Source: Mobula hypostoma | Lineage: Eukaryota | NCBI RefSeq assembly: GCF_963921235.1 | Contig: NC_086097.1 | Coordinates: 9,548,001-9,612,000 of the forward strand | Direction of reading: 5' to 3' | Length of the DNA: 64,000 nucleotides | Shown: positions 357-47,615 of the stretch, in pieces | Layout of the letters: the number at the start of each line of letters is the position of its first letter | How positions within the stretch are numbered: the first letter of the stretch is position 1 | The notes under the pieces: model-generated | Database searches by the model: none | Told to the model about the DNA's origin: nothing | Seen by the model: only the letters and a program-made list of their open reading frames with translations | Position numbers and translations under genes: made by a program

Positions 357-1502
357 CTTGGCAGAATGGGTTCCAATGGGTGGGAAACCTGCTTTTGTCA
401 CTTTTATACCGTGAATACTTCTTATCATATCTGCCAAGAGATCTCCTGAAGGCCCAGGATGGGTATCAGAAGGGGTAATTGATCACGAAGCATTTTTCAT
501 CCTCTGTTCCTAGAGTAACAGAAGACAGAGTGCAACGAGATAGAAGTTTGGACTTTTCTAAACCCTTGCAAGTCTGAAAGTCAAGACCTGGAAGTCAATG
601 ACGCCGAGGGTGAATTCCTGACGCCTGTGAGTCTGAGAATCTGAGAATTGGGGCAGATGGACTTGAGGCCCAGAGGTGGCCTGTCCTAGGGCTGGAGCTC
701 TGTCTGGGTGTGTGCTAGAAAGGGAGGCAGGTGTGGGATAAGGGCTTGTTTTGTTGTCTCGTGTTGCTGGTTACTTGTGGTGATCTGTGGAATGTTGTGG
801 TATGCCACGTTGATGCCAAAATGTGTGATAACACTTGCAGGCTGCCTCCAGCGCATGCTTGGGTGTGTTGGCCCATTTCACTGTATATCTTGATGTCCAT
901 GTGATAAATAATTTTCAAATCTGAAGTCTGCATTATAGTTACAAAGCATGACAGAATAGTTTGACATTGGGAACAGGCCATTTGACCCGTCAACTTTCTG
1001 CCAGCTCTTTGTAAAGTATTTGAATTGGACTCATTTCTCTGCACCTTTCCTCCCCTCAAGTGGTGATCCATTTTCTTTCTGAATGTTCTGAATTGATCTC
1101 ATGACTTTTGATGAAGTTGTTTCTCCATCATCTTCCTGTGGACATCGGTCTTCCTATTGGAACAGTTCTCTCATTGCCATTTGTTCCAAGTTAGCATGAA
1201 GCCTTGGCCTAGCATGCTTCCCATAGGTAGAAAGTATATACAGTTTTGATCACCTACCTACAGGAAAGATGTAAATAACGTTGAAAGAGTGCAGAGAAAA
1301 TTTACAAGGATGTTGCCAGGTCAGGAGAACCCAAGTTATAAGGAAAGATTGAATAGCTAAGGACTTTATTCCTTGAAAAGTAGCAGATTGAGAGGAGGTT
1401 TGATAGAGGTTATACAAAATTAAGAGGAGTATAGATAGGGTAAGTGCAAGCAAGCTTTTCCAGTGAGGTTGGGCAGGACTACAATGAGAGAGTTCATGAG
1501 TT

Positions 1503-3143
1503 CACAGGTATATTAAGAACAAAAGGATTGTAAGGGATAAAATTGGTCCTCTTGAAGATCAGAGTGGTCAGCTATGTGCGGAACCAAAGGAAATGGGGGA
1601 GATCTTAAATAGATTTTTTGCATCTGTATTTACTAAGGAAACTGGCATGAAGTCTATGGAATTAAGGGAAACAAGTAGTGAGATCATGGAAACTGTACAG
1701 ATCGAAAAGGAGGAGGTCCTTGCTGTCTTGAGGAAAATTAAAGTGGATAAATCCCCGGGACCTGGCAGGGTGTTCCCTCGGACCTTGAAGGAGACTAGTG
1801 TTGAAATTGCAAGGACCCTGGCAGAAATATTTACGATGTCGTTGTCTACAAGCGAGGTGCCGGAGGATTGGAGAGTGGCTCATGTTGTTCCATTGTTTAA
1901 AAAAGGATCGAAAAGTAATCTGGGAAATTATAGGCCAGTAAGTTTAACGTCGGTAGTAGGTAAGTTATTGGAGGGAGTACTAAGAGACAGAATCTACAAG
2001 CATTTGGATAGACAAGGACTTATTAGGGACAGTCAACGTGGCTTTGTGCGTGGTAGGTCATGTTTGACCAATCTATTGGAGTTTTTCGAGGAGCTTACCA
2101 GGAAAGTGGATGAAGGGAAGGCAGTGGATATTGTCTACATGGACTTCAGTAAGGCCTTTGACAAGGTCCCGCATGGGAGGTTAGTTAGGAAAATTCAGTC
2201 ACTAGGTATACATGGAGAGGTGGTAAATTGGATTAGACATTGGCTCAATGGAAGAAGCAAAAGAGCGGTGGTAGAGAATTGCTTCTCCGAGTGGAGGCCT
2301 GTGACTAGTGGTGTGCCACAGGGATCAGTGCTGAGTCTATTGTTATTTGTCATCTATATCAATGATCTGGATGATAATGTGGTAAATTGGATCAGCAAAT
2401 TTGCTGATGATACAAAGATTGGAGGTGTAGTAGACAGTGAGGAAGGTTTTCAGAGGCTGCAGAGGGACTTGGACCAGCTGGAAAAATGGGCTGAAAAATG
2501 GCAGATGGAGTTTAAGACAGACAAGTGTGAGGTATTGCACGTTGGAAGGACAAACCAAGGTAGAACATACAGGGTTAATGGTAAGGCACTGAAGAGTGCA
2601 GTGGAACAGAGGGATCTGGGAATACAGATACAAAATTCCCTAAAAGTGGCGTCACAGGTAGATAGGGTCGTAAAGAGAGCTTTTGGTACATTGGCCTTTA
2701 TTAATCAAAGTATTAAGTATAAGAGCTGGAATGTTATGATGAGGTTGTATAAGGCATTGGTGAGGCCGAATCTGGAGTATTATGTTCAGTTTTGGTCACC
2801 AAATTACAGGAAGGATATAAATAAGGTTGAAAGAGTGCAGAGAAGGTTTACAAGGATGTTGCCGGGACTTGAGAAACTCAGTTACAGAGAAAGGTTGAAT
2901 AGGTTAGGACTTTATTCCCTGGAGCGTAGAAAAATGAGGGGAGATTTGATAGAGGTATATAAAATTATGATGGGTATAGACAGAGTGAATGCAAGCAGGC
3001 TTTTTCCACTGAGGCAAGGGGAGAAAAAAACCAGAGGACATGGGTTAAGGGTGAGGGGGGAAAAGTTTAAAGGGAACATTGGGGGGGCTTCTTCACACGG
3101 AGAGTGGTGGGAGTATGGAATGAGCTGCCAGACGAGGTGGTAA
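1503..3143 (+). pseudogene. CR1 ORF2 reverse transcriptase, N-terminally truncated; frameshift in the G-run near 3080
   Basis: Open frame from 1503 (ATG 1593) with NYRPVSLTSVVGKLLE, DFSKAFDKVPH, GVPQGSVL, FADD and RDLG; no APE endonuclease. Confidence 0.92.
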
Positions 3144-3850: not shown

Positions 3851-4417
3851 TTCAGTTAGATACTCTGGAAGTAATCTCCCTTTTTCCATCTCAGAGATAT
3901 ATGAGATGCCTCCATTTCAGTCAAGAGATCCTCACTTGTATATTTGTATGTAAATATGTAATTGTGTTTATGGATTGGTTATGGATATTTTCAGTCTTAT
4001 GGTTTTATATGCTGTGTTTTTGTCTGTTGTTGCTCATTGTTCTTTTTTGTATGGGGAGAGGGTTGATGTTCTTGTTGCATTTTGTTAGTTCTTTTTCTGT
4101 GCGAGGAGAGGGGTGGTTTGGGAAGGTCAACGTTTAGTTGTGTTTTGTGCAGGGGAGGGGTGTTTGGTGGGGGTTGATGATTAGCTGCTGTTCTTTTTTT
4201 CTGCAGCGGGGAGTGCATTTGCTGTTTCTCTTTGAATGACTTCCATGGTTTTCTTAGTTTCGTGACTACCTGGAGAAGACGAATCTCAGAGTTGTATATT
4301 GCATACATACTTCAATAATAAATGAACACAAAATAATCTGCAGATGCTGGGGTCAAAGCAACACTCACAACACGCTGGAGGAACTCAGCAGGTCGGGCAG
4401 CATCCTTGGAAAAGATT

Positions 4418-4454
4418 GGTCGACATTCCGGGCCGGAACCCTTCATCAGGACTG
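4418..4454 (-). ncRNA. Minimal type I hammerhead ribozyme motif (one core substitution, GAAA>GGAA)
   Basis: Minus strand reads CAGTC-CTGATGA-A-GGGTTCCGGCCC-GGAA-TGTC^GACC. Confidence 0.7.
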
Positions 4455-4745
4455 TAGAGGGAAGGGGCAGAGGCCTTATAAAGAAGATGGGGGGCGGGTG
4501 AGAAGGAGAAGGCTGGTAGGCTCCAGGTGGCGGAGATCACAGAAGGGGAGCAGTGAGAGAGGGTCTCACTGAACTCCCATCGAAGAGAAGATTTAAACTT
4601 CTTCAGGGTAGGCATACCTTGAAGAGACTTCGCAGCGGAGTAACGAATCATAAACACAAAATAATCTGCAGATGCTGGGGTCAAAGCAACACTCACAACA
4701 CGCTGGAGGAACTCAGCAAGTCGTGCAGCATCTGTGGAAAAGATC

Positions 4746-4777
4746 GGTCGACATTTCGGGCCAGAACCCTTCACCAG
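4746..4777 (-). ncRNA. Degenerate hammerhead motif (CTGGTGA; 5' arm of stem I truncated)
   Basis: Minus strand reads CTGGTGA-A-GGGTTCTGGCCC-GAAA-TGTC^GACC. Confidence 0.6.
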
Positions 4778-4835
4778 TCTTCTCCTTCCCACCCTCATCC
4801 CACCTTCTTTATGGGGCCTCTGCCTCTTTCCTCTA

Positions 4836-4872
4836 CAGTCCTGGCGAAGGGTTCCGGTCCGAAATGTCGACC
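4836..4872 (+). ncRNA. Degenerate hammerhead motif (CTGGCGA)
   Basis: CAGTC-CTGGCGA-A-GGGTTCCGGTCC-GAAA-TGTC^GACC. Confidence 0.6.
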
Positions 4873-6454
4873 GATCTTTTCCATGGATGCTGCCTGACCT
4901 GCTGAGTTCCTCCAGCGTGTTGTGAATAATAAATGAACCTTTGAACCGTTATGAGCATGTGGCATAATGAAGTAATTGTAATCTCATGAAAACACTTGGA
5001 GATATTTTCAAAGATTAGCTTTATTTGTCACATGTACAATGAAACATACAGTGGAATGCATCACTAAGTCACCAGGGATTGTGGTGGGCAAATGTTGTCA
5101 GGCTTCCCGCAACAGCATAACGTGCTCAAAACGCACTAACCTTAATCATACATTTTTAGAAATGTGGATGCAACTGGAACACCTGGAAGACACCCACTTA
5201 GCCTTGAGAAGGTTTTATTAAATTTTCAGACAGCGGAGGGAATTGTGTCCCAGTCTTACAGCTGATGCTCTAAAGCCTGGTGCTGACTGCTACACTACCA
5301 CATGCATTCTTCCCGAAAGAGTTAACATGTGATCTAAAGTACCAGGGCCTCCTTGAGCTTATCTAACACAGTACTCAGTAGCTCTAAGTTTGTGGCTCAG
5401 TGCTCACCTACCAATAATTACAATTGCTGTCAAGTAGTCAAAATAACTGACCTAGAAAAGGTTTGGTGTATTGTGAGGAAGGTCTTTGAAGAAATGGCTA
5501 CAGATCGATCTTTGAAAGCATTGACAGCTCCACATGGAGGAAGAGAGAAAGGCTGGCGCATCAATGTTTCAAAAGCCAGTGGTGCATATTGAATCAGTAA
5601 TTCTGTAGCTTCCCAGTAAGGCAGAGACAATTACATAAGGAGCAGTGATCGGTAGTACTGTGAGAGACGGGAAAAAAAAATGACAGTAACTGGATAAGGC
5701 ACAGGAGAATTAAATACAAAGAAAGATTAAACTTGATGCAGACAAGCCTTGATTTCAGCAGCATCACTGCCTAACAGGACTAAATGCAGAATGGATATAT
5801 AGGCAGCCCTGAAGCATACAATGGACAAAGTGAGTCACTCACAGTGCATATAATGAGAATGGAAATGTCTTTCATTGTAAAGAACTCTGAAAGTAGAGGA
5901 TGATATTGAAAATCTGTAGGCACAGTATGTTGCCAAAAGAAAGAATGAAAGAAGACTGTTCAATTGATGGAGATGAGTGCTGAGATTTATTGTATGCTTT
6001 CTAATCTAGCAGTCTCACAGAAAGTCAGAGATGTTCCAGACACAAATGGGAATCGTGGTTATTTCAATCAACAACCTTTCGAAGGATACCAGCTTGGCAC
6101 AAAAACAATGAAAGTGAGAAACAGTCAGTTAGCATAATGTTCCATTAAAGGTTGAACCGGTACCAAAATTTTGTTGATTACTTAAATTGTTGTGTTTGAC
6201 ATACATTTGTGTGTAGTTTAAAAGTTTGAACAGATTCTGTCCAAATTGTTAAGCACAGAAAGGTTTATATTTGACCTGACTTGCAAAATTACAACATTGA
6301 GAGAAAAAAAGCAGAAAAAAAATCCAGGGGACGTTGTTCTTCAAGACGGATAAACATGTCAACAGTTTATGGAGCATAGATATAGAACAGGATAGATCCT
6401 TCAGCCCACCACATTGTGCAGACAAATAAAACCTATTCCACAAACAGCCTAACC

Positions 6455-10966: not shown

Positions 10967-12818
10967 TTGCATAAGCAGTGCAAAAGGAGAGCAAAGAGAG
11001 AAATCTGATGGCCGAGGGGAAGAATCTGTAACTAAAACATTGAGTGTGTGCCTTCAGGCTTCTGTACCTTCTCTTTGATGGTAACAATGAGCAGAGGGCG
11101 TGTTCTGGGTGATAGAGGTCCTTAATGTTGGGTGGTGCCTTATTGAGGCCTCGCCTTTTGGAGGTGTTCTGGATGCTGGGGAGGGTTATGCCCATGATGG
11201 AGCTGGCTGAACTTACAATTTTCTGCAGCCTCATTGGATTCTGTGCATTGGCTCCTTCAAACCAGATGGTGATGCAACCTGTTGGAATACCCTCCATGCT
11301 ACGTCTGTAGATGTAACCATCTGTAAACATTACCAAGGGCACAGCTTGAGTAACGTACATAACATTCTTCATCACACTCTAGAAAGAATATGATTGCACT
11401 GGAGATGGGGAGAGGAGATTCACCAGAATGTTGTCTGGGATGGAGTGCATCAGTCAAGATTGGATAGCCTGTTTTGCTCCTTAGGGCAGACCAGGCCAAG
11501 GAGAGATCTGACAGAAGCATGCATAATTAGCTCAATAGCGATAGAGCTCAACTTATTGCAAGCTGTAGTTGTGTTGTTGCTGCACTTGTTGTGTACCATT
11601 GTGCTGAGACGATGCACAGTGTGAGTGACGGTCTTTGTCATTTTCATTGGGATTGCAAGACCTTGTTGGGAATCGCTAACATAGAATACTACATGTCCAG
11701 TTCACCTGTTCATTGTTGAGACCGGTGGTGGGACTGCTGCATTGCTTTGGTTTTTGTGAGGACTAGTCCTAGGCCGAGGCTGCAGTCACCTGTGGCAGTT
11801 GCCCAGGGGAGGAGATACCAAGGCAGTGCTGCCCTCTGGTGTTCACTCGGTGGAAGAACAAGCTGGACCAGGGCAAATTATCATCACAGGGACTTGGGTT
11901 ATATTATTATTTTCTCTCTCTCTCTCTTTGTGACTGTATGTTGTTTTTTTTTTCTGAAATTGTAACCATATGTGCTATTTGTGCTACGTGCTATGTGTAG
12001 TGTGCTTTTTTTTGCCACTGTATTTTGCACCAAGTCCCCAGAGGAATGTTGTTTCATTTGGCTGTATTCATGTATGGTTGAATGATAAATTAAACTTGAA
12101 CTTGAAAGGTGGGCTGCAGTAAACTCATCAACACATATCAACACCTCCACTGTTGAATCTCGTGACAGAAAGTGGTTTTGTGTGATTCTTGAGTGCAAAA
12201 TCAGCTAGCATCTGACAACCCCCCCCCACCCCTTGGAAAATTAAATATTGTGAGTCTCAAACTTTTCAGGTAGCACACTCCAGTTTCCAATACCAACCGG
12301 AATCCTAATCCCAATCTCTTACCCCTTAAACAAAGCTATACTCCATGTTCTTAGACATTCAGCTACAGGCAAACATTTCTCAAAATATTCAGTACATATT
12401 TAGATAAATAAACTTTCAAAAGTTAGACTGAATCAGTTAAGAGTCCAAATGTTAAAGTGCAACATATGATTAAAATTGTCCACTAATCAAGGATATTTGA
12501 AACAGTTTGAAAGTTCAAAGTAAATTTATTATCAAAGTACGTAAATGTCAGCATGTATAAGGCTGAGGTTTATTTTGCTGCAGCCATTCACAATAGAACA
12601 GAGAAGAACAATAGAATCAATGAAAAGCTACTCACGAAGATTGTCAATAATCAATCTGCTAAAGAAAAATTAATCTCAACTTTGGACTACGGGAGGAAAA
12701 AGGAAGCTGGAGTACCTGGAGGAAACCATCTGCAAAATAAAGCAAAATTGTAGCATCAAACTACTCATCCTTTGGTGATAAGTTCTGTGCTTTTCCTCAG
12801 AATCAGAATCAGGTTTAT

Positions 12819-13322
12819 CATTTTAATTCCAATTCCTATACCCATTCTGATGTGTTGGTCCATGGCCTCCTCTTTGGTCAAGATGAGGCCACCCTCAGTG
12901 TGGCGGGGCAACACCTTATATTCCACCTGGCGAGCCGCCAACCTGATGGCATCGATATTGATTGCTTCTTCCAGTAAAAAAATCCCCCCCCCATTCCTCT
13001 ATTCCCTACTCTGACCTTTCACCTATCCTCACCTACCTATTACTTCTCTTGTGTCCCCTCCTCCTTCCCCTTCTCCCATGGTCCACTCTGCTCCCCGATC
13101 AGATGACTTCTTTTCCAGCCCTTCACCTTTCCCACCCACCTGGTTTCACCTATCACGTTCTCGTTAGCCTCCTTCCCCTACCCCCACCTTCTTATTCTGA
13201 TATCTTCCCCCTTCCTTTCCAGTCCTGAAAAAGGGTCTCAGCATAAAACGTTGACTGTTTATTCATTTCCATAGATGCTGCCTGACCTGCTGTGTTTCTC
13301 CAGCATTTTGTGTGTGTGTTGT
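12819..13322 (+). mobile_element. Penelope-like element 3' end: GIY-YIG C-terminus plus pLTR with degenerate hammerhead
   Basis: 12819-12977 translates HFNSNSYTHSDVLVHGLLFGQDEATLSVAGQHLIFHLASRQPDGIDIDCFFQ*; cagtcctgaaaaagggtctcagcataaaacgttgactg at about 13220-13257; TSD tcaggttta (12809-12817 / 13323-13331). Confidence 0.8.
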
Positions 13323-19547: not shown

Positions 19548-20574
19548 ACCATTTCACATGCACTGTCTCAGATCTCCACATTACAAGACCTTTGAATGTA
19601 CATCACTCTGTGCAGATCGTATGGGATGAGGAAGGACTGGGGAAGAAACTCATTGGATATATTTTACAGCCATCTATTCTTTTACATTCATTTATAGATA
19701 TTTGTAGTTTATTTCACAAGGGCATAATAATCTGATTAAAAAACACAATCTTAAAGAGTGCTAAGGAATAATTTATAAGCACTGCACAAGCCAAACCTTG
19801 GTAACGTTTTTCTGAAAATCCAATAAATTGAACATGCTGCAATCCTGAAAAGAAACAATGAAGGATTTTTATTTTCAAAATTTGAGTTGTTGTGTGCTGC
19901 CAATATATTCTATTCTCACTGAATATAATTGCTTATCCTGCTTTACTATGTGCTGTTTAGATACTTATTAAAAAGGAGAATAAAACCGAATCATGTCAGC
20001 TTGAACCTATTGAACAAGTAAACAAGGTATGTAGGGATTCCTCCCAAGAGGGCAAAATATGCTCATAAGCTACCCAAAGAATTTCACATAATACATTTCT
20101 CACTAGCAGCTCTCCCTCCAAGGAGTCACGATTTTACTTGGGGTTTGGCAGCAAGGCAGTGAGGTATACACATTGCTGTGACATTCAAACAGACGATCAT
20201 AAAATCCAAGCAATCCTGTGACTGAACAAGTCCAACAGACTTCTAATACTCTTCTGGAGTTTTCCTAAATACAGGCAAGGGGCCCAGGAAAATTGTCACT
20301 CTCTAATCAAATACATATTTGTAGTTTGACTGTTTGTGTGCTACTTAGATTTAAATACATCTTGAAGAAATCAGGAATTTTTAAGAGGTAAAGCTACAGA
20401 CTGGCAAAATCCCATGTACAACACACACAAAATGTTGGAGGAACTCAACAGGTCAGGCAGCATTTTTATGGAAGTCAATAAACAGTCGATGTTTCAAGTC
20501 AAGACCCTGCTTCAGGACTGGAAAGGAAGGGGGCAGAAGCAACAATAAGAAGTGCCCCTTCTTTTCCAATTTTA

Positions 20575-21160: not shown

Positions 21161-22601
21161 TTATATGCGTGTGTCGCTCTGGATTTTCAGCATCTAAAGA
21201 ATCTTGTATTTATAAAGTGACCTTTGTGTATACAAAATGGAACATATTCGCAAGCAACCAACGGACTAAATGGAAGAAATAAGACGTTTAAATATGTCAA
21301 CAATGCATCATCTTCCCCATTTGCCTATGTCAGGAACTAGTGGTAATTAGATCAAGCAATCTTCTCTAATAATGTGTTTCACTGGCACTATTTCGGATAA
21401 AATTTGACACAGCCATATAAAGGAGTGTCTTAATTGAGGAGAGATTAAAAGAGGGAATTCAAACCCAATTAAAAAATAACCAACCATGGAAAACTAAAAA
21501 TGAAAGTTCAAGTTCAGGTTTAACCATACAGATGAATTGAAACAAACAAAACGGTGTTCCTCTGGAACCATGACAAACCACAAGTCTATCATGAGCCTTA
21601 CGGCTTCCTGTATTCACTACGTGTTATCTTACTAGAGCCATTAATTCCTTGTGCTTTCAGGTTAATCTGGTCAATTTAATTGTGACTGGCAAACACAAAA
21701 ATATCTGCAGATGCTGGAAATCCAAGGTAAAACACACAAAATGCTGGAAGAACGCAGTAGGCCAAGCAGCATCTGTAGAAAGGAATGAACAGTTAACATC
21801 TTGAGCTGAGACCCTACACTATGACTGGAAATAAAGACGAGAAGTTTGAGGAAGGTGGTGGGGGGAGGGAAGGAAGAGGTACAAGGTGGTAGGTGTGAGG
21901 GAGTGGGAGAGAGAGAGAGCCTGTAGGATGTCAAAGTGTTGAGATGGAGAGTGATTTTTTTGAGGAACTTTAGATCATGGTCTCTAGGTGCTGGCTTGGT
22001 GGATGGTAGGTGTGGATTGTGCATTTGCTGCTGCTGGTGGGTGAGGTTCAAAGCTTCTGCTCTCTTTGGGGTGGGAGTTGGGGGGGCTTTGGGGTTCTAA
22101 TATTTTCTGTCATACATTCTTTGGGAATTTTCTTCTGTTTCATGGATGTCTGTGAAGAGTAAGAGTTTTAGGTTGTATACTGCACACACCCTCTGATATT
22201 AAACCCAACTACTGAACCAGTGAGTTGGCGTCAGTGATTCCTATGACAGAGAAAGCCTGCTGTTCTCTGTACCTGGGTCCTACTCTCTGAGAACACATGG
22301 TGATACAGTCACACACAGCACACAGCACATGGGCTATACAGTACATAAACAGTAGTAACAATGGCAGAAAAAAAAAGTCATAAAGAAATGGTCCAGCTCA
22401 AGTCCCAGAATGGCATGGCCTGTAGACTGATTGGGCAGAGGCTCAGGATAGATCTTTAGAGGTATTGACACTGCTCACCCACAATGCTGATCACTGCCAT
22501 TAGGTTGCCCCTCAGCCTCTGGGAGTGGGATTATTCGGAACGCACAGCCAGGGGAAGTGGTAGAAGCAGACACAATTTTGTCCAAAAGTCTTGGGCACAT
22601 A

Positions 22602-22951: not shown

Positions 22952-25032
22952 AGCAAAGTACAGTACAACAGAAACATTTAGACAGACATATGAGCAGGAT
23001 GGGAACAGAGGAGCACGAACCTTGTTTAGGCAATTTGTAATTATTTAGATTGGTATTGGAGCAGTCATCATCGACTGAAAGACCTCTTCCTGTTTTATAC
23101 TATTAGGACCATAAGACCATAAGATATAGGAGCAGAATTAGACTATTTGGTCCATCGGGTCAACTCTGCTATTCCAGTATAATTGAATTTGTATTCCTCT
23201 CAACCCCATTCTCCTGCTATCCTAGAGTGGGTTAGAGTGGTTGGAGGTGTTGATCATCTTTACTGCTTGGGGAAAGTAACTGTTTGTGAGCCTGGTTATC
23301 CCGGTGTGAATGCTGCATCATCTCTTCCCTGGTGGGAATGGGACAAAGGGTCCATGAGCAGAGCAGGTGGGACCTTCTTGCTGACCCTTTTCTGTACTAA
23401 TGTCCTTGATGGTGGGTAGGCCAGTGCTGATGATGGGTGGGGCAGTTTTACTTTCTACGCATTAAATTAGTGGTTGAAGATTTGAGAGAAATTCAATGAC
23501 TATTATCTTCTTTGGCACTCCTGAAAAAGTGATAAAGTGCTGTATAAATGCAAGTTATTCCATTTGTTTTGAACAAAGTAAGTTTGGATGAATGTGCTTG
23601 TTCCAGGTAATGCTGAGAAAGACAACCGCATTGTGTGTGCTCTATTCCTTCCATACTTGATTGAGGCTATTTGTCTGATTGAACCATGCCCTACTTTTCC
23701 ATTTCTCAAACAGAAGAAGAATTTCATCTTGTTGTAGGAATATAATTAGTTCCTAAAAAGATTTGAAGATAATTTAGAAAGCTCATTGTTCATGCTTTCC
23801 TGGAAAGAGATTTGCTGGAAAGCAAAAAATGTGACTGACTTTGAACTGATTTTGAAGTTCTTTTGCTTATTTTTAAAGTTCTTAATTGTCTGGGACCAGA
23901 GTACATCACAGAATCACTTTTGCTTTATGATCCTGCTCAAGCTGCCAGGTCTTCTTTGATCAGTCTTTTAAACTTACGCAATTTCCTCCAAAAAGATAAT
24001 TGGCCAGACAGCATTTTTTCTGATTTACGCTCCTAAACGGTCTCTGCCTCCCTGTCGTTTGCTGCTTGTGAAGGAAGGTACCTGTGCTCGAATTGTTTCT
24101 TTCTCCCTCGATGCTGTCGGAGGATGGTGCCAGACTCCTGGGTTTTGGGAAAGTTTAAATGACACAGTTTGTGGATAGGACTCAATAGTTCACATTATGA
24201 TTGGTTTCAAATCACTCCTTTTCTTGTTGCTATTTTGGGCAATTTTGAATTGGCGGTGGCCTGCAGGTAACAAACACTGAGCTGAACTGAATATTCCTGG
24301 ACTTTTTCAATTTTATGTTCTGTGTTTCTAGCTTGCTTTTTCACTATTTGTGTGATTTTTTTGTGTGTAGGAGGGTTGATGTTTTTCTTCGAACAGGTTC
24401 CCTGGTTCTGTGGCTGTCTGTGGAGAAGATGAATCTCAGAGTTGTATACTGCATACATGCTTTGATAATAAATGTACTTTGAATCTTTAAATTGTAAGGG
24501 ATGCAGACTCAGTTGACACATTTAAAATCTAGCTCCAAACCTATTTATTTAACCTTGACGTCTTTTTGTCTTTTATTTTCATGTTTGAACTTTATCCCTT
24601 TGTGAAGTACTTTGAAGTACATCGTCTGTATGAAAAGTTCTGTACAAATAAGTATTATTGTTATATTCTTTTTTCTCAGCTCAAGCTGGTAAAACTTGAG
24701 GTACAGGCATAGCCCAGAATACTGATTTCTCAATTGCTAGGAACTTTCGGACTACTCTAGTGTTTAGGATTGTGGCTTTCTGGAGATTTACAAAAATATT
24801 TACATAAATATTGATAGCTTAGTTGCTATTGTGTAGTGATGTTGGGATGAAACCAGTTGTATATACTACTATATTACTACAATGTATACCCTGTTCATGT
24901 TCTGTAGTCTTTCAATTTCCTCTTTTAATTCAGCATATTTCTTGTGTTTATCACTTATTCATTTCTGCATGTTGGGTATGTTTGGAATGTCTAGGTCTAT
25001 TAAGTAAGTTGTTCTTACTTGTTTATCCTGTA

Positions 25033-26638: not shown

Positions 26639-27430
26639 TTAGACCACAGGTGGAGAATTGGGCCATCCAGCTCAAAACTGCTCTTCCATTCCATCATGGC
26701 AGATCTAGACCATAAGACCAGAAGATATAGGAGCAGAATTAGGCCATTTGGCCCATCAAGTCTGCTCTGCCAATTCCATCATGGCTGAGTTATTGTCTCT
26801 TCCAACTTCATTTTCCTGACTTCTCTCCATAACCCTGGATGCGCTGAATAACTAAGAACCTATCTAATTCCGATTTAAATATATCCAATGTCTTGGCCTC
26901 CACAGCCATCCATGGCATTGAATTCTACAGATTTACCATCCTCTGCCAAGAGAAATTCCTCCTCATCTCTGTTCTAAAGGGAGGTCCTTCTATTCTGAGG
27001 CTGTGCCCTCTGGTCCTGGACTCTCCAAGTATTGGAAACATCCTCTCCATGATCACTCTATCAAGGTCTTTCAATATTTGTTATGCTCCAGTGAGATCTC
27101 CCTTCATTCTTCAAAAAACTAGCGAGTACTGGCCCAGAACCACAAAATGCTTGAAGGGGCTTATGACTTGTCCTAAGTTCAACAGGTAGGATCATGACCA
27201 TTAATTACCTGCTAACAGAAATTAAATCGAAGGTTCAGAAGTTCTGAATTTTTTAAAGGTTCAAATGTTCATTTATGATCAAAGTATGTATGCAGAATAC
27301 AAATGAAAATAATCTTCTCCAGATAGCTATAAAACAAAGAAAACCATGGAAGTAAAAAAAAAACATGGAAACTGGCTTATCTCTTTTTAACTTTTGATAA
27401 AAATCTATTTCACTCTGAATCCTGCATACT

Positions 27431-29715: not shown

Positions 29716-31007
29716 TCCCAGACTAGAACTAGAGGTAACTGGTGAAGGATAAGAGGTGAGATATTTAAGAAGAACCTGAGGGGGATTTGTTCACTCAGAA
29801 TGTGGTGCAAGTACGGAATAAGCAGAAGTGGTGGATGCAGATATGATTGCAACATTTAAGGGATGTTTGGTTAAATACAGGAAGAAGGCAGGAGATTGTG
29901 GCCATGTTGGAAAATGGATCAGCCATGGTGAAATGGCAGAGTGGACTTGATGTGCCAAATTACCTAATTCTGTTACTACATCTTTTAGTCTTATGGTCTA
30001 GATAGATGGGATTGGTATGGAGGGATTTGGTCCAGGACAAGGCAGAATAAAAGTTCAGGAGGACCAAATAGGCCTTGGGGTCTGTTTCTGTGCTGTAGTG
30101 CTCTTTGACTCAATGATTCAGAATTAAACTGGAGAATTGACACCTTCATTTAATTTTCGAATCTTCGTAGCCATGAATATCTCTCTCAGGTCTACCCAGT
30201 GTTTCACTCTTTAACAAAGTCTTACATCCCTGCTTTCTGAATAATTGTCTCTTTCATTGCATGTCCCTCAATTCTCCAGCATTTTAGGCAGGGGTAGGGC
30301 TAGAGATTATTCGAGCTGCAAGAGATGGCAGAGGTTGCACTCATAAGCAACACACAAAACATTGGAGGAGCTCAGCAAGTCAGGCAGCATCTGAGGAAGG
30401 AAGTAGACAGTTGATATTTGAGGTCAAAGCTTTCACCTGGATTACCGTCCATTTCCCTCCATTGTTCTGCCTGATCCATTGAGTTACTCGCTGTGTTTTA
30501 TTTATTTTATCCTATTTAGAGATAACGTGTGGAAAAGGCCTTTCGGACCCAAGGAGCCACACCTATTTAACCCTAGCCTAATCACGGGACAACTTAGAAT
30601 AACAATTAACTCATGTCTTTGGAATGTGGGAGTAAATTAGAGCTCCAAGAAGAAACCCATGCAGTCACGGGAAAGGCATACAAACTTCCTCCAGAGGACT
30701 ACGGAATTGAGCTCCAAACTCTGAGCTGCAATAACATCACATTAACCACGAGCCGTGGTACCAATGTTGTACCAGAGATTTATTTTGCATCATCTGGGTA
30801 CCACCTACACGTGGATACAAGTATAATTGCTGATTAGCATCTCCATCTCTTCCAACACTGCATAAAAACCTCATATTTACATATTTGCATATGATTTTAT
30901 TTGGCACTTCCTGAATTATTCCAATGAGTTCAAGTGGGTTATCACGCGGCAGAGCAAAATGCTAGAGCAACTTAGCAGGTCAGGCAACATCTATGGAAAT
31001 GAATAAA

Positions 31008-31045
31008 CAATCGATGTTTCGGGTCAAGACCCTTCTTCAGGCCTG
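31008..31045 (-). ncRNA. Minimal type I hammerhead motif, core intact, weak stem I
   Basis: CAGGC-CTGAAGA-A-GGGT-CTTG-ACCC-GAAA-CATC^GATTG within a PLE-derived repeat. Confidence 0.6.
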
Positions 31046-32213
31046 GAAAGGAAGGGGGAAGACTCCAGAATAAAAAGGTGGGGGGGCAGGGGAAGGAGGA
31101 GGATAGCAAGAAGGTGATAAGTGAAGTCAGCTGGGCAGGAAAGATATGTCTTGATGAAGGGTCTCGGCCTGATACCTTCCACTGGTAATGCCTGACCTAC
31201 TCATCTTCTCCAACACATTGTTCTATATTTCCGGCATCTGCAGTGCCTCTTGTGTCTAAGAAAGTTAAAGGGCTGGAGTAGAAGGAATCTGAATGGACCA
31301 CAGGAGAAAGGGAAGGAGGAGGGGATCCAGGCAGAGGTGATAGGCAGGTGAGAAGAGGTAAGAGGCTGAGTCAATTATTGTTCAACAATCTTTTAAAGAT
31401 CTGAAAGGAGTCACCCGACATGGAATTAATCAGGCATTTCACTGAAATAGGATGATAGTATCTGAAATTATAAAATGAGTGCAATTGCAAATGAGAACCT
31501 TTGAAATGGACAAATACAATTAAAAATGAAAGTGCAAAATGACATATGCTTGCCCTTTGAAGTCTCATCCATACATATGAGACAGATGAAAATGATTTAT
31601 GAGTTGTACAGAGCATTTGAAGTGTAACTATTCTAATTAAACCTCCTATTTAGAATGTACAGGACACAACACCATTGCAGTTTTCAAGTGGGAATAAAAA
31701 TGCACAAGACAGGGCACGATTGTAGTCCTCATGGAGTTAAGAATGCACAGAACAGATTGGAGTCCTCATGAGCAGGTACAAAGCCCAGAAAAGTATAATC
31801 ATCTGGTCACTATATAACCTGTCTGGGAGACTGCACAACAGAACTCTTTTACGATATATGCTTCGGACTGATTAAAATGATGACTTTTTTTTTGGTGGCT
31901 ATTAAGAGTAGCCATATTAGAAATGGGACAAGTTCAAAGTACGTAGTCATTTTATTTTCCTGCTGGTCTTTGGGCAATACTGTATTTGCATATGGAAAAT
32001 ACAAACAAGATTACATTTATAGTTATTCCATTTTAGCTGGTTTTCGAGATGAACAAAGTCTTGTAATCTGCTGAGCAAAACTGTAATCAAGTTAAACAGT
32101 TCTCATCATAACATTGGCAATTAATGCAAGATAAAGTAATTAATTTGGATCCAGAAACCCTATCTACGGAGTCTGATTGAAACTTATTCATCTAAATGAA
32201 GTTTTTCTACTTA

Positions 32214-35160: not shown

Positions 35161-35546
35161 AAGACAACAAGATATTCTACAAATGCAGTCATACCTCGAA
35201 GAGACTTTGCAGTGGAACCGCAAATCAGATATTTTAGCATCTACAGAATCTCTTGTGTTTATGCTCCATTATGAAGTCTCATCAAGGTATGTCTATCATG
35301 AAGTTTAAATCTTCTCTTTGACAAGAGTTCAGTAGGCTCTCTCTCATTGCTCCCACTCAGTGATCTCTGCCACTCCTGAATTCTTCAACTCTGTGCTTAC
35401 CCAGGCTCGCTTAACTTATCGCTTTCCAGCTTGTATTCCTTCCCCTCCCGCACCCTCCTCAACCATCTTATTCTGGCTACACTCTCTCTTCCTTTCTAAT
35501 CCTGAAGTAGGGTCTCAGCCCAGAGTCTTGTCATCTTCAGAAGTTT

Positions 35547-36400: not shown

Positions 36401-36660
36401 GAATCATTGACTCTTAGACAATGCTGTTTGATCTGCTGAGTTCCTCCAGCATTTTGTGTGTGTTACTTTTCTTCTACCAGTTTGCTCACCACCATCTGAT
36501 GAAGAAAAGTCCTTCAGAACATTTTACCACCTGGCTAAATCTATATCATCTGGTTTTATCTGCTTCTGAGATGGGGGAAAGATTCCTGCAGTCTACCCTT
36601 CTTTTACTCCGCCTAATTTTACTGGAGTCAATTTTAGAAAACCTAGCACATTTATTTTTC

Positions 36661-38658
36661 TTTCTTTTCTTTTTAAATCTTTTTATTGAGTAAGTATACA
36701 AAAAAGGTAAGCCATATAAACATTAATACAATGTTAAAGTATAATAAAATTCCAAAAGATAACAATACCAAAAAGAAAATACTACAAACAATGTAATTTA
36801 AGCATAAGAAACCAAGATAACATAATAGTATACTAGATTTTATATATATCAATGGAAAAAAAAAGAAAAAAAAACCCCAAAAAAAAACCCACCGTGCAAC
36901 TAACTAAAAGCAAAGCAAAGCAATGGGCTAACTTGAAACCAAACAGAGTTAAACTTAAAATCACGTCCTCAATCCCGACCTCCATTAAAACAGTGAAGAA
37001 AAAACAAGAAGGGTAAATATTACATTAAATGAAAATATCGAATAAAAGGTCCCCAAATCTGTTCAAATTTAAATGAAGAATCATAAAGGTTACTTCTAAT
37101 TTTCTCCAGATTCAAACATAAAATCGTCTGAGAAAACCAAAAAAAGGTAGTTGGAGCATTAAGCTCTTTCCAATGTTGTAAAATACATCTTTTCGCCATT
37201 AAAGTAAGAAATGCAATCATTCTACGGGCTGAAGGGGAAAGATTACTAGAAATTTTAGGTAGTCCAAAGATAGCAGTAATAGGGTGAGGAGAGATATCTA
37301 TATTTAATACCTTAGAAATAATATTGAAAATATCTCTCCAAAAAGTTTCCAAAGTAGGGCAAGACCAAAACATATGAGTTAAAGAGGCTATCTGCCCCGA
37401 ACATCTATCACAGAAAGGATTAATATGCGAGTAAAAACGCGCTAACTTATCTTTGGACATATGTGCTCTATGAACCACTTTAAATTGAACTAGGGAATGT
37501 TTAGCACAAATAGAGGAAGTATTAACTAATTGTAAAATCTGCCCCCAATCATCCACAGAAATGGTAAGCCCCAATTTCTGTTCCCAATCTACCCTAATCT
37601 TATCAAATGGAGCTTTCCTAAGTTTCATAATAATATTATAAATCATAGCCGATGCACCTTTCTGACATGGATTAAGGTTAATTATCGAATCTAAAATATA
37701 TATAGGAGGAAGCATTGGAAAGGAAGAAAGTATAGTACTTAGGAAATTTCTAACTTGTAAATATCTAAAAAAATGTATTCTTGATAAGTTATATTTATTA
37801 GATAATTGTTCAAAAGACATAAGGGAACCATCTAAAAATAAATCCAAAAACCGTAAAATACCCTTAGTCTTCCAAGTTTGAAAAGCGCGATCCGTAAAAG
37901 AGGGAGGAAAAAATATGTTACCTAAAATAGGAATCGCTAACCCGAATTGATTAAGATCAAAAAATTTTCTGAATTGAAACCAAATGCGCAAAGCATATTT
38001 AACTATCGGGTTAGAGACCTGCTTAAGACGTTTCGAATCAAAAGGAAGAGAGGAACCTAAAATAGAACCAAGTGTATAACCCTGAACAGATTGTAATTCC
38101 AATGCTACCCATTTAGGAATAGATAGTATGTCCCGGTCAAGTAACCAAAATTTCATATGTCGAATATTAATAGCCCAATAATAAAATCTAAAGTTAGGTA
38201 ATGCTAAACCTCCATCTCTCTTAGCTTTCTGTAAATGTATTTTACCCAGTCTCGGATTCTTATTCTGCCAAATAAATGAAGAAATTTTAGAGTCAACTTT
38301 ATCAAAAAAAGATTTAGGAACGAAAATTGGTAATGCCTGAAACACATATAAAAATTTTGGCAAAAAAAACATCTTAACTGCATTAATACGACCAATCAAA
38401 GTTAAATATAAGGGAAACCATTTAGATGAAAGTTGAGTAATATGGTCTATTAATGGTAAAAAGTTAGTCTTAAATAAATCTTTATGTTTACAAGTAATTT
38501 TAATCCCAAGATATGAAAAGTAATTATTAATCAATTTAAATGGAAATTTATAATATAAGGGAAGATGTTTATTAATCGGAAAAAGTTCACTCTTACTAAG
38601 ATTTAATTTATAACCTGAGAAAAGACCAAATTGTGCTAATAACTCTAAAACAGCAGGA
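36661..38658 (-). mobile_element. 5'-truncated L1-clade LINE with 13-bp TSD
   Basis: TSD acatttatttttc at 36648-36660 and 38659-38671; AATAAA and A-rich tail on the minus strand. Confidence 0.92.
37020..38658 (-). pseudogene. L1 ORF2 C-terminal part (RT end, thumb, zf-RVT), uninterrupted
   Basis: FSGYKLNLSKS, YLGI, GRINAVKM, GGLALPNF, CDRC...HMFWSC; no stop from the truncation point to 37020. Confidence 0.9.
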
Positions 38659-39554
38659 ACATTTATTTTTCAACAGAGTCCCCTCCTACATTTACACACT
38701 TAGTCCAGCGGTCGTGGAGCATACGGATCTTGGACCTCCAGAAAGTGCCCACAGCAGGGGTGATTGATAAGTTTGTGGCCTAAGGTAGAAGGGGATGAGT
38801 TATACAGCTCTCGTTACATGCACATGCAGTTCAACTCTTTGAGTGATTATGCAGAAAGTTTGAAGTTAATAACTCATCTCCTTCTACCTTAACTACCTTC
38901 TACTATGCTGAAAAATAAATGGGCTAGGTTTTCTAAAATTGACTCCTTCTACCTTAGGCCACAAACTTATCAATCACCCCTCGTATGTGCAATATGGACG
39001 TCTAAGAATTTTACACAGTACTGTGTAAATGTGGAGCAGAGAGTGAGTCTGTAAACTTGGTGGGAGAAGAGGATGTTGGGAATGGCGAGGATGGAGCACC
39101 GTGGGAGGGGTGTGGGACAGGTAGCAGAGAAGTTGGCCAAGGACAGGAAGTGGCGCAGATACAGACACACCCAGGCCTGAGACACCAGGCAAGGCCATTT
39201 GATTCCAAACAATTGGTTTATTGATCATTACAGAATGTCTCTCTGGTGCTTTCCATTGCCTCCCCCTCCCTTCTCCTTTTTCCAACCATGATTCCCCTCT
39301 CCCTGCCTCTCCCCACCCCCCATCCACAATAAAGACCCATATCAGAATCAGTATTACAATACTGTGCAAATGTTTTAGACTTCTAGTAAAATACAAAAAT
39401 TGTAGGTACATCAATCATGTTCCTATGAATGTCCTTCTCTCTTCTCCAGACTCTTTTCATAAGTGAAACTCTTATCCCAGAAAACACCTTGATGACACAC
39501 ACAAAATGCTGAAGGAACTCAGCAAACCAGGCAGCATAAATGGAAAAGAATAAA

Positions 39555-39592
39555 CAGTCTACATTTCGGGCCGAGACCCTTCTTCAGAACTG
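39555..39592 (-). ncRNA. Minimal type I hammerhead motif, core intact
   Basis: CAGTT-CTGAAGA-A-GGGT-CTCG-GCCC-GAAA-TGTA^GACTG; 5-bp stem I including one G-U pair; GUA triplet. Confidence 0.7.
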
Positions 39593-39950
39593 GAAGCGGA
39601 AGGGGAAGAAGTCAGAATAAGAAGGTGTGGGAGGGGAGAAAGAAGTGCAAGGTGGCAGGTGATTGGTGAAACCAGGCAAGGGGGATGGGCGATGTAAAGA
39701 ACTGGGAAGCTGATTAGTGAAAGGGACACCTCTGCACCCTCCAGCACTACAAATGCCTTCAATCCACAGATCTTTTAAGACCTCAACTACATTCCATTTA
39801 ATCATACTTGTGATTTAAAATTCAAAATCAAACTTGAGTTTTTGTCTCACTTTAGATAAAATTTTCATATTGAGAAAAATATCAATGAATCTGTAGCCCT
39901 CTGTATAATGTGCAGGCAAAGATTTTCATTTCATATTCTTTATCTGATCA

Positions 39951-42462: not shown

Positions 42463-43786
42463 AGTGGTGGCATCCGTTGGTCTCGCGAGACCATGGATCT
42501 ACGCCTGGAAAGTCTTGCTTCAGTCTGTGTTAGAGCAGCGTCTGTTGTGGCTGTAGAGGCCCACATGGGAGTGACAGTCTCGACTACAGTGACTGCACTC
42601 GAAGGCACTGTCCTCCAGTGTTGTCTTGGTGCTGTTTTTTCCGACGAGTGCGCTTCTCTTCAGCAGCAAGCCTCAGCTTCTCTTCTCCTGTTTTTAGACC
42701 TCTGCGTAGTTCCAGCCTCCAGTGAGAGCGATCGCTTGTGATGCCCTCCCACCTCTCGACGTTCATTTTCAGTGACTTCATGTCTCTCTTGCAAACGTCT
42801 TTGAAACGAAGATGGGGCCACCCTTGTGCTCTCGTGCCGGAGGCAGGTTCTCCGTACAGCAGGTCTTTTGGGACCCTCCCGTCTGACATGCGGTGTACGT
42901 GGCCCAGCCAGCGGAGATGACGTTGTTGGAGCAGGGTGAAGAGGCTGGGTATCTGGGCATGGGCCAGGACCTCATTGTTGGTGACTGGGTCAGTCCACCT
43001 GATGTTCAGGATGCGTCTCAGGCTGCGAAGGTGGAAGACGTTGAGACGCCGCTCTTGTCTGTAGTAGAGGCTCCAGGTCTCACTGCCGTAAAGCAGTGTG
43101 CTGAGAACACAGGCCCCGTAGACTGCAACTTTGGTGTGTATCGTCGGTTTTCTGTTCTCCCAGACTCTCTTTGTCAGCCTGGTGAATGTCGAGGCTACTC
43201 GTCCGATCCGTCTGTTGATCTCGAGGTCCAGGGAGAGACTGTCCGTGATGGTGGAGCCAAGGTATGTAAACTCATGAACTACCTCCAGCTCATAGTTGTT
43301 GATGGTAATGGTAGGAGGGTGCTCAACGCCTTGGCCCAACACGTTGGTTTTCTTCAGGCTGATGGTCAAAATCCTCATCAGGATTGGTTGTCCCCCGAGG
43401 CTCCTCAGGATAGTTCAGTCATTCCACACAGACATGAAGGGCGTCGTTCAGTTCGACGGCTCTTCTTCAGAGGCCTTCAACATCCGCAGCGGTGTGAAGC
43501 AGGGCTGTGTGCTTGCCCCCACCCTGTTCGGCATCTTCTTCGCAGTCATGCTGAAGCACGCCTTTGGAACATCAACTGATGGTGTCTACCTCCACACCAG
43601 ATCGGACGGAAGGCTGTTCAGTCTGTCCCGGCAGAGGGCGAAAACCAAGGTTTGCAAAGTACTCATCAGGGACATGTTGTTTGCAGACGATGCGGCACTG
43701 GCAACACACTCTGAAGACCAACTACAACGCCTCATAGACAGCTTCTCAAGAGCCTGCCAGGACTTCAGCTTGACCATCAGCCTGAA
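42463..43786 (-). mobile_element. RTE-clade LINE, 5'-truncated with 5' inversion
   Basis: Minus part (42463-43369): FTYLGS, LLYGSETW, LRWLGHVHRM, C2H2 remnant. Plus part (43370-43786): GVKQGCVLAPTLF, LFADD. Confidence 0.92.
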
Positions 43787-45201
43787 TGGGGCGAGTGAAG
43801 TTGAGTGAAGTTACCCTCACTGGTTCAAGAGCCTGATGACTGAGAGGTAGTAACTATTCCTGAACCTGGTGGTGTGAGTTGTGAGGCTCTAGTACCTTCT
43901 TCCTGATGGTAGCAGTGAGAAGAGAACATGATCACTGATGATGGATGATTGCTGGTGGGATCGCTCTGCTGCTGGAGAGGAGAGAGGTCGCCGCTGTGCC
44001 CGGAAGATGTTAATCAGGTTTTCTGCTTTTTGGCTATGGACTTTTTCAGTCATAGTTTCTTATATTCTGTGATTTCACTGATCCTTCTTGCCTTTTTTGT
44101 TTGTGGGGGCGGGAGACTTGGCGGCTGACGAGCCTGTTCCATTTTTGTTCTTGTTTTTGGTGTGGGGAGTGGGGATTTGGGGGTTAATGCCGTGCTTAGT
44201 TTTCTTTTCTTTCTTGGTTTCCTGGCTCTCTGGAGAAGAAGAACTGCAGAGCTGATAACAAGTAAACCTTTGAACGTTTGATGCTGCTTTCCTGCAACAC
44301 AACTATGCTTCATGTGAACGTGCTCAATTGTGAAGAGAGCTTTAAAAGACCCATGATGGACTGGGCCATATCTACTACATTTTGTAGGATTTTCCAATTA
44401 AAAACATTGGTGTATTTTTTTTATTTTGTCTGCTTAGAATATTTAGAACCTACTTAAAAATATTCCTTTGAAGTTCAAAGTAAGTTTATTATCAGAGTAT
44501 GCATATGCCACCATATACAACCATGAGATTCATTTTCTTGCAGGCATTCAGAGTAGAACAAATGAAATACAATAGAATCAATGAAAAACTACACACAGAC
44601 TGAAAAACAATGTGCACGAAAAGGCAAACTATGCAATATTAAATAATAATATTCTTTTTATTTTCAAAGTGATAATGATAATAAATACATAAATATCGTT
44701 AAGAACATGAGTTGCAGAGTACTTGAAAGTGAGCCCATATAGATTGTGATTCAGTTCAGTGAAGTTATCCACACTTTAGTGCACAGAATAACAATTTCAA
44801 TACAATTCTAATACTTTCCATGCTAAAGATGAAGTAATTCAAAAGTTTAAAGTTTATGTAAATCATTCAATAGTCAAAACACTCGGGGCCTATGTTGGCT
44901 TTGCAAATGCAAATTTACATCAATCTACAGATCATTCAAACAAATGCCTCTCACCTCCTGACCCATTTGTTAGCCTGAGGTGTTAACATGGAGCCCGTCT
45001 ATAATTGACGCATCTGCTGTCATTTAGTGAGAGGGAATGTGTCAGAAAGGAATTTTGACACTGCTGCCAGGTGTATGCTTTTGACCTGGCCAATGCTTAG
45101 GAGATCATACTAATACAATATGATTGTATTTTCTGTGCAAGACAATGTGTGTGGAAAGCAAACCTTCTGCTGTTCTTCCATAGTAACATCACACATAATA
45201 T

Positions 45202-45235
45202 GTCCTGACGAAGGGTCTCGGCCCGAAACGTCGAC
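45202..45235 (+). ncRNA. Minimal type I hammerhead motif, consensus core
   Basis: GTC-CTGACGA-A-GGGT-CTCG-GCCC-GAAA-CGTC^GAC; palindromic ACGT stem III; starts a PLE-derived fragment running to about 45325. Confidence 0.75.
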
Positions 45236-45696: not shown

Positions 45697-47615
45697 CAGT
45701 GGTCCCCAGCCACCGGGCCGCAAAGCATGTGCTACCGGGCCGCGAGGAAATGATGTGATTTGGCAATATGAAACGATATGAGTCAGCTGCATCTTTCCTC
45801 ATTCCCTGTCACGCCCACTGTTGAACTTGAACTCACGCAAGGTCATCAGTAAATGTCACTTGAGAGTTTCTTTGGAAGAGATGGTAGGGGACATAAAAGG
45901 CCTAATGTTGATGATAACGCAGAGATAGCTGAGGCCGAGACTGCAAAAAAAAAGAAAGCTTCCTTCAACAGAAAATAGGACGAGTCGTACATAAAATATG
46001 GCTTTATTGCGACCGGTGACTCGCACGCTCCAAGCCCCCTGTGTGTGATATGTGGAGACAAGCTGTATAATGAGGCAATGAAGCCCTCAAAACTGCCTCG
46101 GCACCTTGAGCCCAAGCAGCCTGCACCTAAAGACAAACCCGTTGAGTTTTTGAGTGGAAAAAACGTGAGCAAGCGGGACAGAAGCAAGTGCTGAGAGCCA
46201 CAACCTCCACAAATGCTGCTGCTCTGAGAGCGTCGTACTTAGTGGCTGGCCGTATTGCTAAGGCTAAGAAGCCTTTCACTGTTGGTGAAGATTGATTCTG
46301 CCTGCTGCCAAGGACATGTGACGTGAACTGTTGGGAGAAGCTGCAGCTAACAAGATGGCACAGGTTTCTCTTTCAGCTACCCCAGTTTCAAGAAGAATCG
46401 ATGACATAGCGGAGGACATCGAAGCACTGCTGTTGGAACGGCTTAATGGGTCTGGTTTCACTACCCCAGTCAGAGAGGTTGCTCCTGAACGTCAGTCTAC
46501 ACACTGTGTCACACACAGGGAAATGCTGGCTAGTCGAAAAATGTCACTTGATCGTAACAGCGTATTGAGTGATGTTGTTGAAGTTATCAATCACATCAAA
46601 GCAAAAGCCCTTAACTTGCATTTGTTTGAGCAGCTTTGCGAGGAAATGGATGCAGAGCACAAATGCCTTCCCTTACACACTGAAGTCAGGTGGCTATCAC
46701 GGGGGAGAGCCCTGGCCAGGGTTTTTGAGTTGAGAGAGCAGCTACAGAGATTTCTTTCAAGAAAAAAGTCATCACTGGCAGCACACTTCAGTGACGAGGA
46801 GTGGATAGCAAAACTCATCCGTGTGGCATCTTCATCCTGCTCAATGAACTCAATTTGTCACTTCAGGGGAGAATGACAACTATTTTCAAGTTGGCAGATA
46901 AAGTGTCTGCTTTCAAAGCCAAACTGGAACTGTGGGGACAGCAAGTGGACAGGGGCATATTCGACATGTTCCCAACATTAGCTGGGATTTTGGGAGAGAC
47001 TGAGGCTGCACCGTCCTTCTCACAGCTGGTGCGTGATCACCTATCTTCACTGTTGACAGAATTCGAGCGTTATTTCCCAAACGCAAATGACCCAAGACAT
47101 GCAAAGGAATGTCCCCGGTGAATCATCCACGTCACCTCGAGAAGAAGATCAACTCCTCGAGCTTGCAAATGACAGTGGGCTGAAAAGTATGCTTGACATA
47201 ACATCTCTGCCGGGTTTCTGGATCAAATTCAAGGCTGAATATCCTGAGATAGCCACGAAAGCACTGAAAACGTTGCTTCTATTTCCAACATCATATCTCT
47301 GCGAAGCAGAGTTTTCTGCAATATCTCAACAAACACTAAATTGCGGAATAGACTGGACATAAGGAACCCCCTTATAATCGACTTATCACTATATTCACGC
47401 GAGGAAAATATGCGTTGCGTGTTTAATATTAAATTTGTTAGATAAACCCTTTTAGAAACGAAATTGAGTGTATTAGCCACTGATAAGTGACTCATAGTTG
47501 ACTTATCACCTATATTCCGGTCGTGATTAACACCCCCCTCCCCACGTCAGCCAGTCCGCAAGAATATTGTCAATATTAAAACTGTCCGCGGTGCAAAAAA
47601 GGTTGGGGACCGCTG
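45697..47615 (+). mobile_element. hAT (Buster/Charlie-type) DNA transposon, internally deleted
   Basis: 15-bp TIRs cagtggtccccagcc / ggttggggaccgctg; perfect 8-bp TSD ccatatac with central TA; fragmented transposase PLCVICG..AMKPSKL, HCVTHRE, EVRWLSRG, FPTSYLCE. Confidence 0.95.

Follow-up and report, generated by a model that had tools for sequence, protein, structure and literature searches.

The 597-bp insertion at positions 4328-4924 of the window (the whole 64-kb stretch of DNA analysed) is probably an internally deleted insertion of a Penelope-like element (PLE), in which the 328-nt spacing between two hammerhead motifs would be accidental. It appears to have kept the standard layout of such elements, namely an inverted pLTR, a short 5' pLTR, an ORF remnant and a 3' pLTR with its tail, enclosed by a TSD, with nearly all of the ORF missing. 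Five of six features of EN+ PLE insertions are present: an exact 14-bp TSD in an AT-rich target, partial tandem pLTRs with a 5'-truncated upstream unit, an adjacent inverted and 5'-truncated copy (4773-4924), a one-ended 38-nt tail (4328-4365), such tails being described as 30-40 bp long (PMC8557442), and a minimal hammerhead in the pLTR, whose core is restored by the majority letters of the family. The sixth, an RT/GIY-YIG ORF, is absent from 4328-4924. The Penelope origin proposed in an earlier note on this DNA is thus upheld by the pLTR tandem, the inverted arm, the one-ended tail, the TSD and the minimal hammerhead, and so are the non-autonomy and fossil state that it ascribed to this copy. 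The main result against this reading is a single contig of organism A that crosses the internal junction elsewhere. Most likely, the locus is one decayed copy of a very abundant and already described kind of element, and as such matters little; a gutted Penelope copy that mimics a retrozyme dimer nevertheless calls for caution in pipelines which call retrozymes from hammerhead spacing.

Structure and age of the insertion

The features of the locus, in window coordinates, are as follows.

4239..4327, plus strand: host target, the 3' tail of an older dispersed repeat, broken by the insert and resuming at 4939
4314..4327, plus strand: left copy of the TSD, 14 bp and AT-rich, with 5 of its last 6 letters agreeing with the continuation of the template
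4328..4365, minus strand: 38-nt 3' 'tail' that the direct arm has and the inverted arm lacks, arm C stopping at the equivalent of 4366
4366..4529, minus strand: 3' pLTR (arm A), comprising a pyrimidine-rich 3' region, a minimal hammerhead and a downstream conserved block, recognised from window paralogs and family contigs
4414..4457, minus strand: minimal type I hammerhead motif A, with C17 at 4422, A13G, a 3-bp stem I and a non-palindromic helix III base
4527..4529, minus strand: junction of the putative ORF start and the 3' region, with an overlap of up to about 3 nt
4527..4651, minus strand: spacer, with a stop-free frame of about 41 codons from ATG 4651 and a 77% DNA match to 35253-35373
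4650..4777, minus strand: 5' pLTR (arm B), 128 nt, 5'-truncated at hammerhead C3, with C17 at 4750 and the 5' strand of stem I missing
4773..4777, no strand: inversion junction, a 5-nt overlap of arms B and C that contains the A6G of motif B; one organism B contig spans it
4773..4924, plus strand: inverted pLTR (arm C), 152 nt, 89% to arm A, with a hammerhead motif at 4833-4876, C17 at 4868 and A6G
4925..4938, plus strand: right copy of the TSD; its junction is found in the runs of organism A (0 differences in 132) and organism B (2 in 130)

The 14-mers bounding the insert are exact, cannot be extended on either side and occur only twice in the 64 kb. When the insert is removed, the flanks align across the site with 27254-27353 (80%) and 24421-24489 (87%), both being paralogous tails of a dispersed repeat. 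Because the empty site is intact in these window paralogs, the insertion and its duplication are real, and the 597-bp insertion inside one 14-bp TSD described in the earlier note stands. The alignment of the emptied flanks with other copies of the repeat tail also identifies the target as the AT-rich end of an older element, which at 4239-4327 we take to be a LINE-like 3' tail. The repeat content of the window as a whole would suit a cartilaginous fish.

Three related arms make up most of the insert: A (minus strand, extending with its tail over 4328-4529), B (minus, 4650-4777) and C (plus, 4773-4924), the last being the inverted pLTR segment with a plus-strand motif that had been noted previously. 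Arm A is 66-72% similar to window paralogs near 13.2k, 21.8k, 31.0k and 39.6k. The direct repeat comprises 128 nt at 93% identity, which within a 328-nt period amounts to 1.39 units, and no array was reported by TRF. Since arm C ends 38 nt before arm A, the insert has an outward-facing 3' end on either side, one with the tail and one without it. A partial tandem with an inverted arm is an ordinary product of Penelope insertion.

Judged from the divergence of its arms, which are 8-10% apart (7-8 differences in 84 shared positions), the insertion is old. The right junction was found in DNA runs of two organisms (A and B) and the inversion junction in B, so that the insertion is probably older than the split between organisms A and B. 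No difference separates arms A and B in the 63 nt at the 3' end (4328-4390), while 8 of 59 positions differ in the adjoining 4391-4449, four of these eight differences lying at CpG sites; conversion between the arms or mixed templates are possible causes of this pattern. As a sign of different templates, the uneven divergence becomes weak once CpG sites are left out (P 0.03 and 0.07; post hoc and uncorrected).

Hammerhead motifs and the 328-nt unit

The predicted minus-strand cleavage sites are indeed 328 nt apart, with C17 at 4422 and 4750, and a third C17 lies on the plus strand at 4868. A core change is present in every motif (A13G at 4428, A6G at 4774 and A6G at 4844), in agreement with the core mutations reported for each hammerhead in the earlier note. 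Its tandem hammerheads hold in part: two minus-strand motifs exist, but the upstream one has no 5' stem-I strand and the repeat is only 128 nt long. Motif B starts at C3, its 5' stem-I strand being replaced by the inverted arm with 0 of the 6 first positions able to pair, and its A6G sits within the 5-nt overlap with arm C; because that strand was lost at the inversion, motif B is no complete hammerhead. In motifs A and C, three stem-I pairs adjoin the core. A degenerate motif pattern, derived from the window's own copies, matched six times in the window, compared with 0.00 in 100 shuffles; given that derivation, the matches show repetition rather than catalysis. Rfam returned no match at gathering score, and four matches at E 1-5.3 were discarded as being at chance level.

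Helix III carries T in all three arms, against C in 78-82% of the family depth. Minimal hammerheads are thought to use the helix III palindrome in dimers (PMC4209133), and the T spoils that palindrome here. The template probably carried the T already, and would thus have been weakened before copying, because the CpG at that position is unlikely to have changed three times independently (roughly 0.2 cubed); alternatively, the shared T may have spread by conversion between the arms.

The 200-nt non-repeated remainder of the unit consists of two parts that meet near 4527-4529. Homology of the spacer with a second short tandem in the window (35236-35530, plus strand; hereafter the 35k copy) ends at 4527, and two listed contig pieces coming from the 3' side end at 4528-4529. 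The stretch from 4450 to about 4529 corresponds to the pyrimidine-rich region lying ahead of the hammerhead in the copies at 13.2k, 21.8k, 31.0k, 35.4k and 39.6k, and the spacer is probably the start of the parent element's first ORF. The minus strand is free of stops from ATG 4651, just beyond the tail, to 4388, which makes the previous description of the insertion as non-coding doubtful, though the frame is without a protein match; a stop-free spacer frame also occurs in 24% of shuffles. We take this frame to resemble the N-terminus of ray Penelope ORFs. Its 42 residues had no match among longer proteins, in Pfam, in the ESM Atlas above 0.80 or by two-peptide alignment, and two matches among 1.84 billion representative proteins were dropped as unrelated repetitive proteins. 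Such blanks are weak because the queries are short and decayed, and because no database protein matched, the spacer is treated as putatively coding. Eight family-majority changes fall in the spacer, four of them at third codon positions, which is too few to weigh.

As an internally deleted PLE insertion, the locus could have formed in a few steps. The parent's RT/GIY-YIG protein would have cut each strand of an AT-rich site, the two nicks lying 14 nt apart. One nick would have primed cDNA from the outer start site, at the tail end (4328), and the second from the inner start site (4924), which lies 38 nt further in; a head-to-head meeting of both cDNAs at the 5-nt overlap (4773-4777) would have followed. 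The ORF would have been lost through a short-overlap join from about codon 41 to the 3' region, whether by a template switch while copying, in the source copy or by a later DNA deletion, and the 328-nt spacing would be the length left by this join. Hammerhead cleavage and a circle would not be needed. A circle has been proposed for PLEs generally and would also give 1.39 units (PMC4209133); nothing at 4328-4924 requires one. No full-length parent element was seen in the window or in the listed contigs.

Comparison with known systems places the locus close to EN+ PLEs (Penelope/Poseidon and Neptune, with Pen2a/Pen2 of Adineta vaga), which likewise have two direct pLTRs with an adjacent inverted pLTR in short overlap. 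In Pen2a/Pen2, the inverted pLTR overlaps the direct one and both tail and TSD are present (PMC3846280; PMC8557442), and the locus shares their 30-40 nt tail at one end, TSD and 5'-truncated upstream unit. Unlike in these elements, the ORF is almost gone here (about 41 codons would be left, if the spacer is what it seems), the arms overlap by 5 nt where theirs overlap by 15, and the TSD measures 14 bp as against 8-10 bp. From Adineta, a derivative that lost internal sequence but has inverted pLTRs and a TSD has also been described, together with microhomology deletions (PMC3846280). In vitro work on a lizard PLE showed that both strands are cleaved at AT-rich sequence, that the tail is defined by two internal RT start sites and that insertion does not depend on HHR activity (PMC11167929). 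The AT-rich target and the outward-facing 3' ends differing by a tail are shared with this Poseidon of Anolis carolinensis; its ORF, however, begins inside the hammerhead, whereas the candidate ATG here lies about 100 nt past the cleavage site, and a further difference from the source's account is that the 3' end here matches the target at 5/6 (PMC11167929). The hammerheads resemble the minimal type of metazoan PLEs in their core boxes, the unpaired base before stem II and the lack of a stable helix III, as well as in having opposite-strand motifs 100-700 bp apart and a mass occurrence as truncated copies, but differ from that type in the core changes of all three motifs and in a stem I of 3 bp rather than 4-5 bp (PMC4209133).

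Family evidence and alternative explanations

Four of 24 listed public runs were aligned on 4200-5050 at 85% likeness, covering organisms A, B and C, one of the runs (X15) being only guessed to be RNA; the material consists of contigs, which show neither RNA ends nor circles. The numbers of contigs aligned per run were 89,811, 81,362, 6,546 and 38,707. Summed depth, which is not copy number, was more than ten times lower in the spacer bins than in the peak pLTR bins. Family majority letters give GAAA at 4428 in about 95-99% of depth in all four runs and A6 at 4844 in 62-76% of depth, so that the wider family does have the intact core on which the earlier note had staked its reading, this consensus being that of the whole PLE family. 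The locus itself falls in a subfamily with a changed 3' stem-I strand (4414-4421 and its equivalents in arms B and C), which makes up about 88-93% of depth at 4418 in organisms A and B versus about 10% in C.

Individual pieces were available as 32 listed of about 212,000, and joints as 15 listed of 680. Twenty-two of the 32 pieces cover the spacer: 12 end at 4533-4535 (in all four runs), nine end at 4541-4587 and one crosses the junction; one listed spacer piece runs on for 332 letters unlike those of 4328-4924. The crossing contig comes from organism A and is 124 nt long, with 16 differences and 2 gaps (87% identity). It represents another locus, because the right junction of 4328-4924 matches that run at 132/132, so at least two loci carry this join or one like it. 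Among the 22 listed spacer pieces, none from organisms B or C or from the putative RNA run crosses the junction, and no joint going back by 328 nt occurs among the 15 listed of the 680. Young high-copy families break into short contigs, and a family sharing the junction could be hidden in this way.

The crossing contig bears on the possibility that a single origin of the deleted unit was followed by its amplification in trans, as a non-autonomous mini-PLE family, from linear tandem transcripts, involving neither ribozyme cleavage nor circles. Its 87% identity across the junction speaks for such a history, the helix III change in all three arms suggests a source that had already decayed, and Chlamydomonas provides a precedent of non-autonomous PLEs with head-to-tail copies (PMC8557442). 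We nevertheless regard this as rather unlikely, since only 1 of the 22 listed spacer pieces crosses, with none in organisms B, C or the putative RNA run, and the window's second short tandem is joined at a different point. The 35k copy shows tail, spacer, pyrimidine tract and decayed hammerhead in the same order, with 77% spacer identity, yet its tail anchor lies 266 nt from the next core against 227 here, the different junction making it 39 nt longer. A more ambitious version, which we hold to be unlikely, would see in the locus the birth of a vertebrate retrozyme from Penelope, the join of ORF start and 3' region having then spread alone, possibly via a circle; the junction would in that case be common to a young family in these fishes and the crossing contig would be a sister copy. 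If true, this would give a nucleotide-level account of an origin that a 2026 preprint inferred only from phylogeny (bioRxiv 10.64898/2026.07.22.740005).

The earlier note proposed a non-LTR retrozyme, that is, a 328-nt monomer cut by dimeric hammerheads and closed into a circle that the PLE protein reverse-transcribes through more than one round. In its favour, the 328 nt between C17 positions lie within the 150-450 bp range of such elements (PMC7229834), with a mean of 363 bp given for one chondrichthyan (bioRxiv 10.64898/2026.07.22.740005); the core is intact in the wider family, one other contig crosses the junction, a circle copied beyond one unit would also yield 1.39 units, and the stability of the circular fold (-84.3 kcal/mol) somewhat exceeds that of 200 shuffled sequences (z -2.4). 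That stability is modest, with only 51% of the monomer paired, and the tandem holds a single complete motif, TRF finding no array. The motif is the minimal one of PLEs, its stem I being 3 bp long, and the non-palindromic helix III base is common to all three arms. Most of the 22 listed spacer contigs leave the locus at the junction, the 35k copy is spaced differently, and neither the insertion ends nor the inversion lie at cleavage sites. Of the Xenopus dimers, 8 of the 9 tested did not cleave according to the same preprint (bioRxiv 10.64898/2026.07.22.740005), in which at least two consecutive units, each with a complete hammerhead, define a retrozyme; the locus has 1.39 units and an incomplete motif B. 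Retrozymes shown to form circles carry the canonical hammerhead (PMC7229834), and the canonical type I form of coral, mussel and axolotl retrozymes is absent here, there being no monomeric helix III and a stem I of 3 bp. Thus, with 1.39 units, one complete motif and 1 of 22 listed pieces crossing the join, a monomer excised, circularised and copied for more than one round finds little footing, and we judge it decidedly unlikely at this locus.

The locus does share with animal non-LTR retrozymes its non-autonomy, PLE derivation, unit of about 330 nt, one type I hammerhead and long TSD, but differs from them in having no array of two complete units, a minimal rather than canonical hammerhead and a junction absent from most listed family pieces (PMC7229834; bioRxiv 10.64898/2026.07.22.740005). 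The preprint reports retrozyme families in one chondrichthyan and argues for their PLE origin, so that a retrozyme reading would not be new in kind; should the junction prove common to an amplified circle-forming family, it would offer a direct view of animal retrozymes arising from Penelope. No description of the family at 4328-4924 was found in the open literature, most subscription journals and Repbase lying outside the scope of the search. Finally, an origin without retrotransposition of the composite, whether as an artefact of assembly or because a solo pLTR was duplicated locally or folded back at the DNA level, is scarcely credible. The identity of the arms over 63 nt followed by 8 differences in 59 could reflect conversion, as such an origin might leave, but one exact TSD encloses the three arms with the empty site intact in paralogs, two organisms have the right junction in their DNA runs and one has the inversion junction, and half of the A-B differences (4/8) are at CpG.

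Other copies in the window

The 35k copy has its decayed hammerhead near 35502, and an inverted 30-nt spacer piece (35187-35216) runs into about 450 nt of low-complexity purine/pyrimidine sequence. At 12810-13317 (plus strand), a longer 5'-truncated copy has a 3' region that extends further upstream, preceded by a stop-free frame of 55 residues (12810-12974) that by eye is like the GIY-YIG C-terminus in Fig. S2 of PMC8557442; this short, decayed query had no database match. Outside the window, DNA pattern scans gave no match in viral contigs nor in the first metagenome scan. Metagenome and genome contigs gave one match each, of which L001 was rejected as a chance match in bacterial-type coding sequence, while L002 sits in a contig titled Rhodospirillaceae MAG.

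A copy at 45205-45234 (plus strand) has a fully intact minimal hammerhead core with a palindromic helix III base, and apparently starts just a few bases upstream of that core. At 186-352 and 48569-48741, the same pLTR occurs as small inverted insertions arranged head to head, the second being flanked by a 14-nt near-duplication (48554-48567 and 48735-48748). Nine more decayed solo pLTR fragments are scattered over the 64 kb (13127-13317, 20419-20552, 21692-21893, 30328-30411, 30955-31143, 36421-36469, 39495-39692, 49298-49381 and 58796-58890). The window also contains five long frames, at 1500-3143 (plus), 37020-38669 (minus), 42584-43808, 46322-46876 (plus) and 60590-62975 (plus), which are presumably LINE ORF2 fragments (CR1-, L1/Tx1- and RTE-like) together with a piece of a hAT-like transposase.
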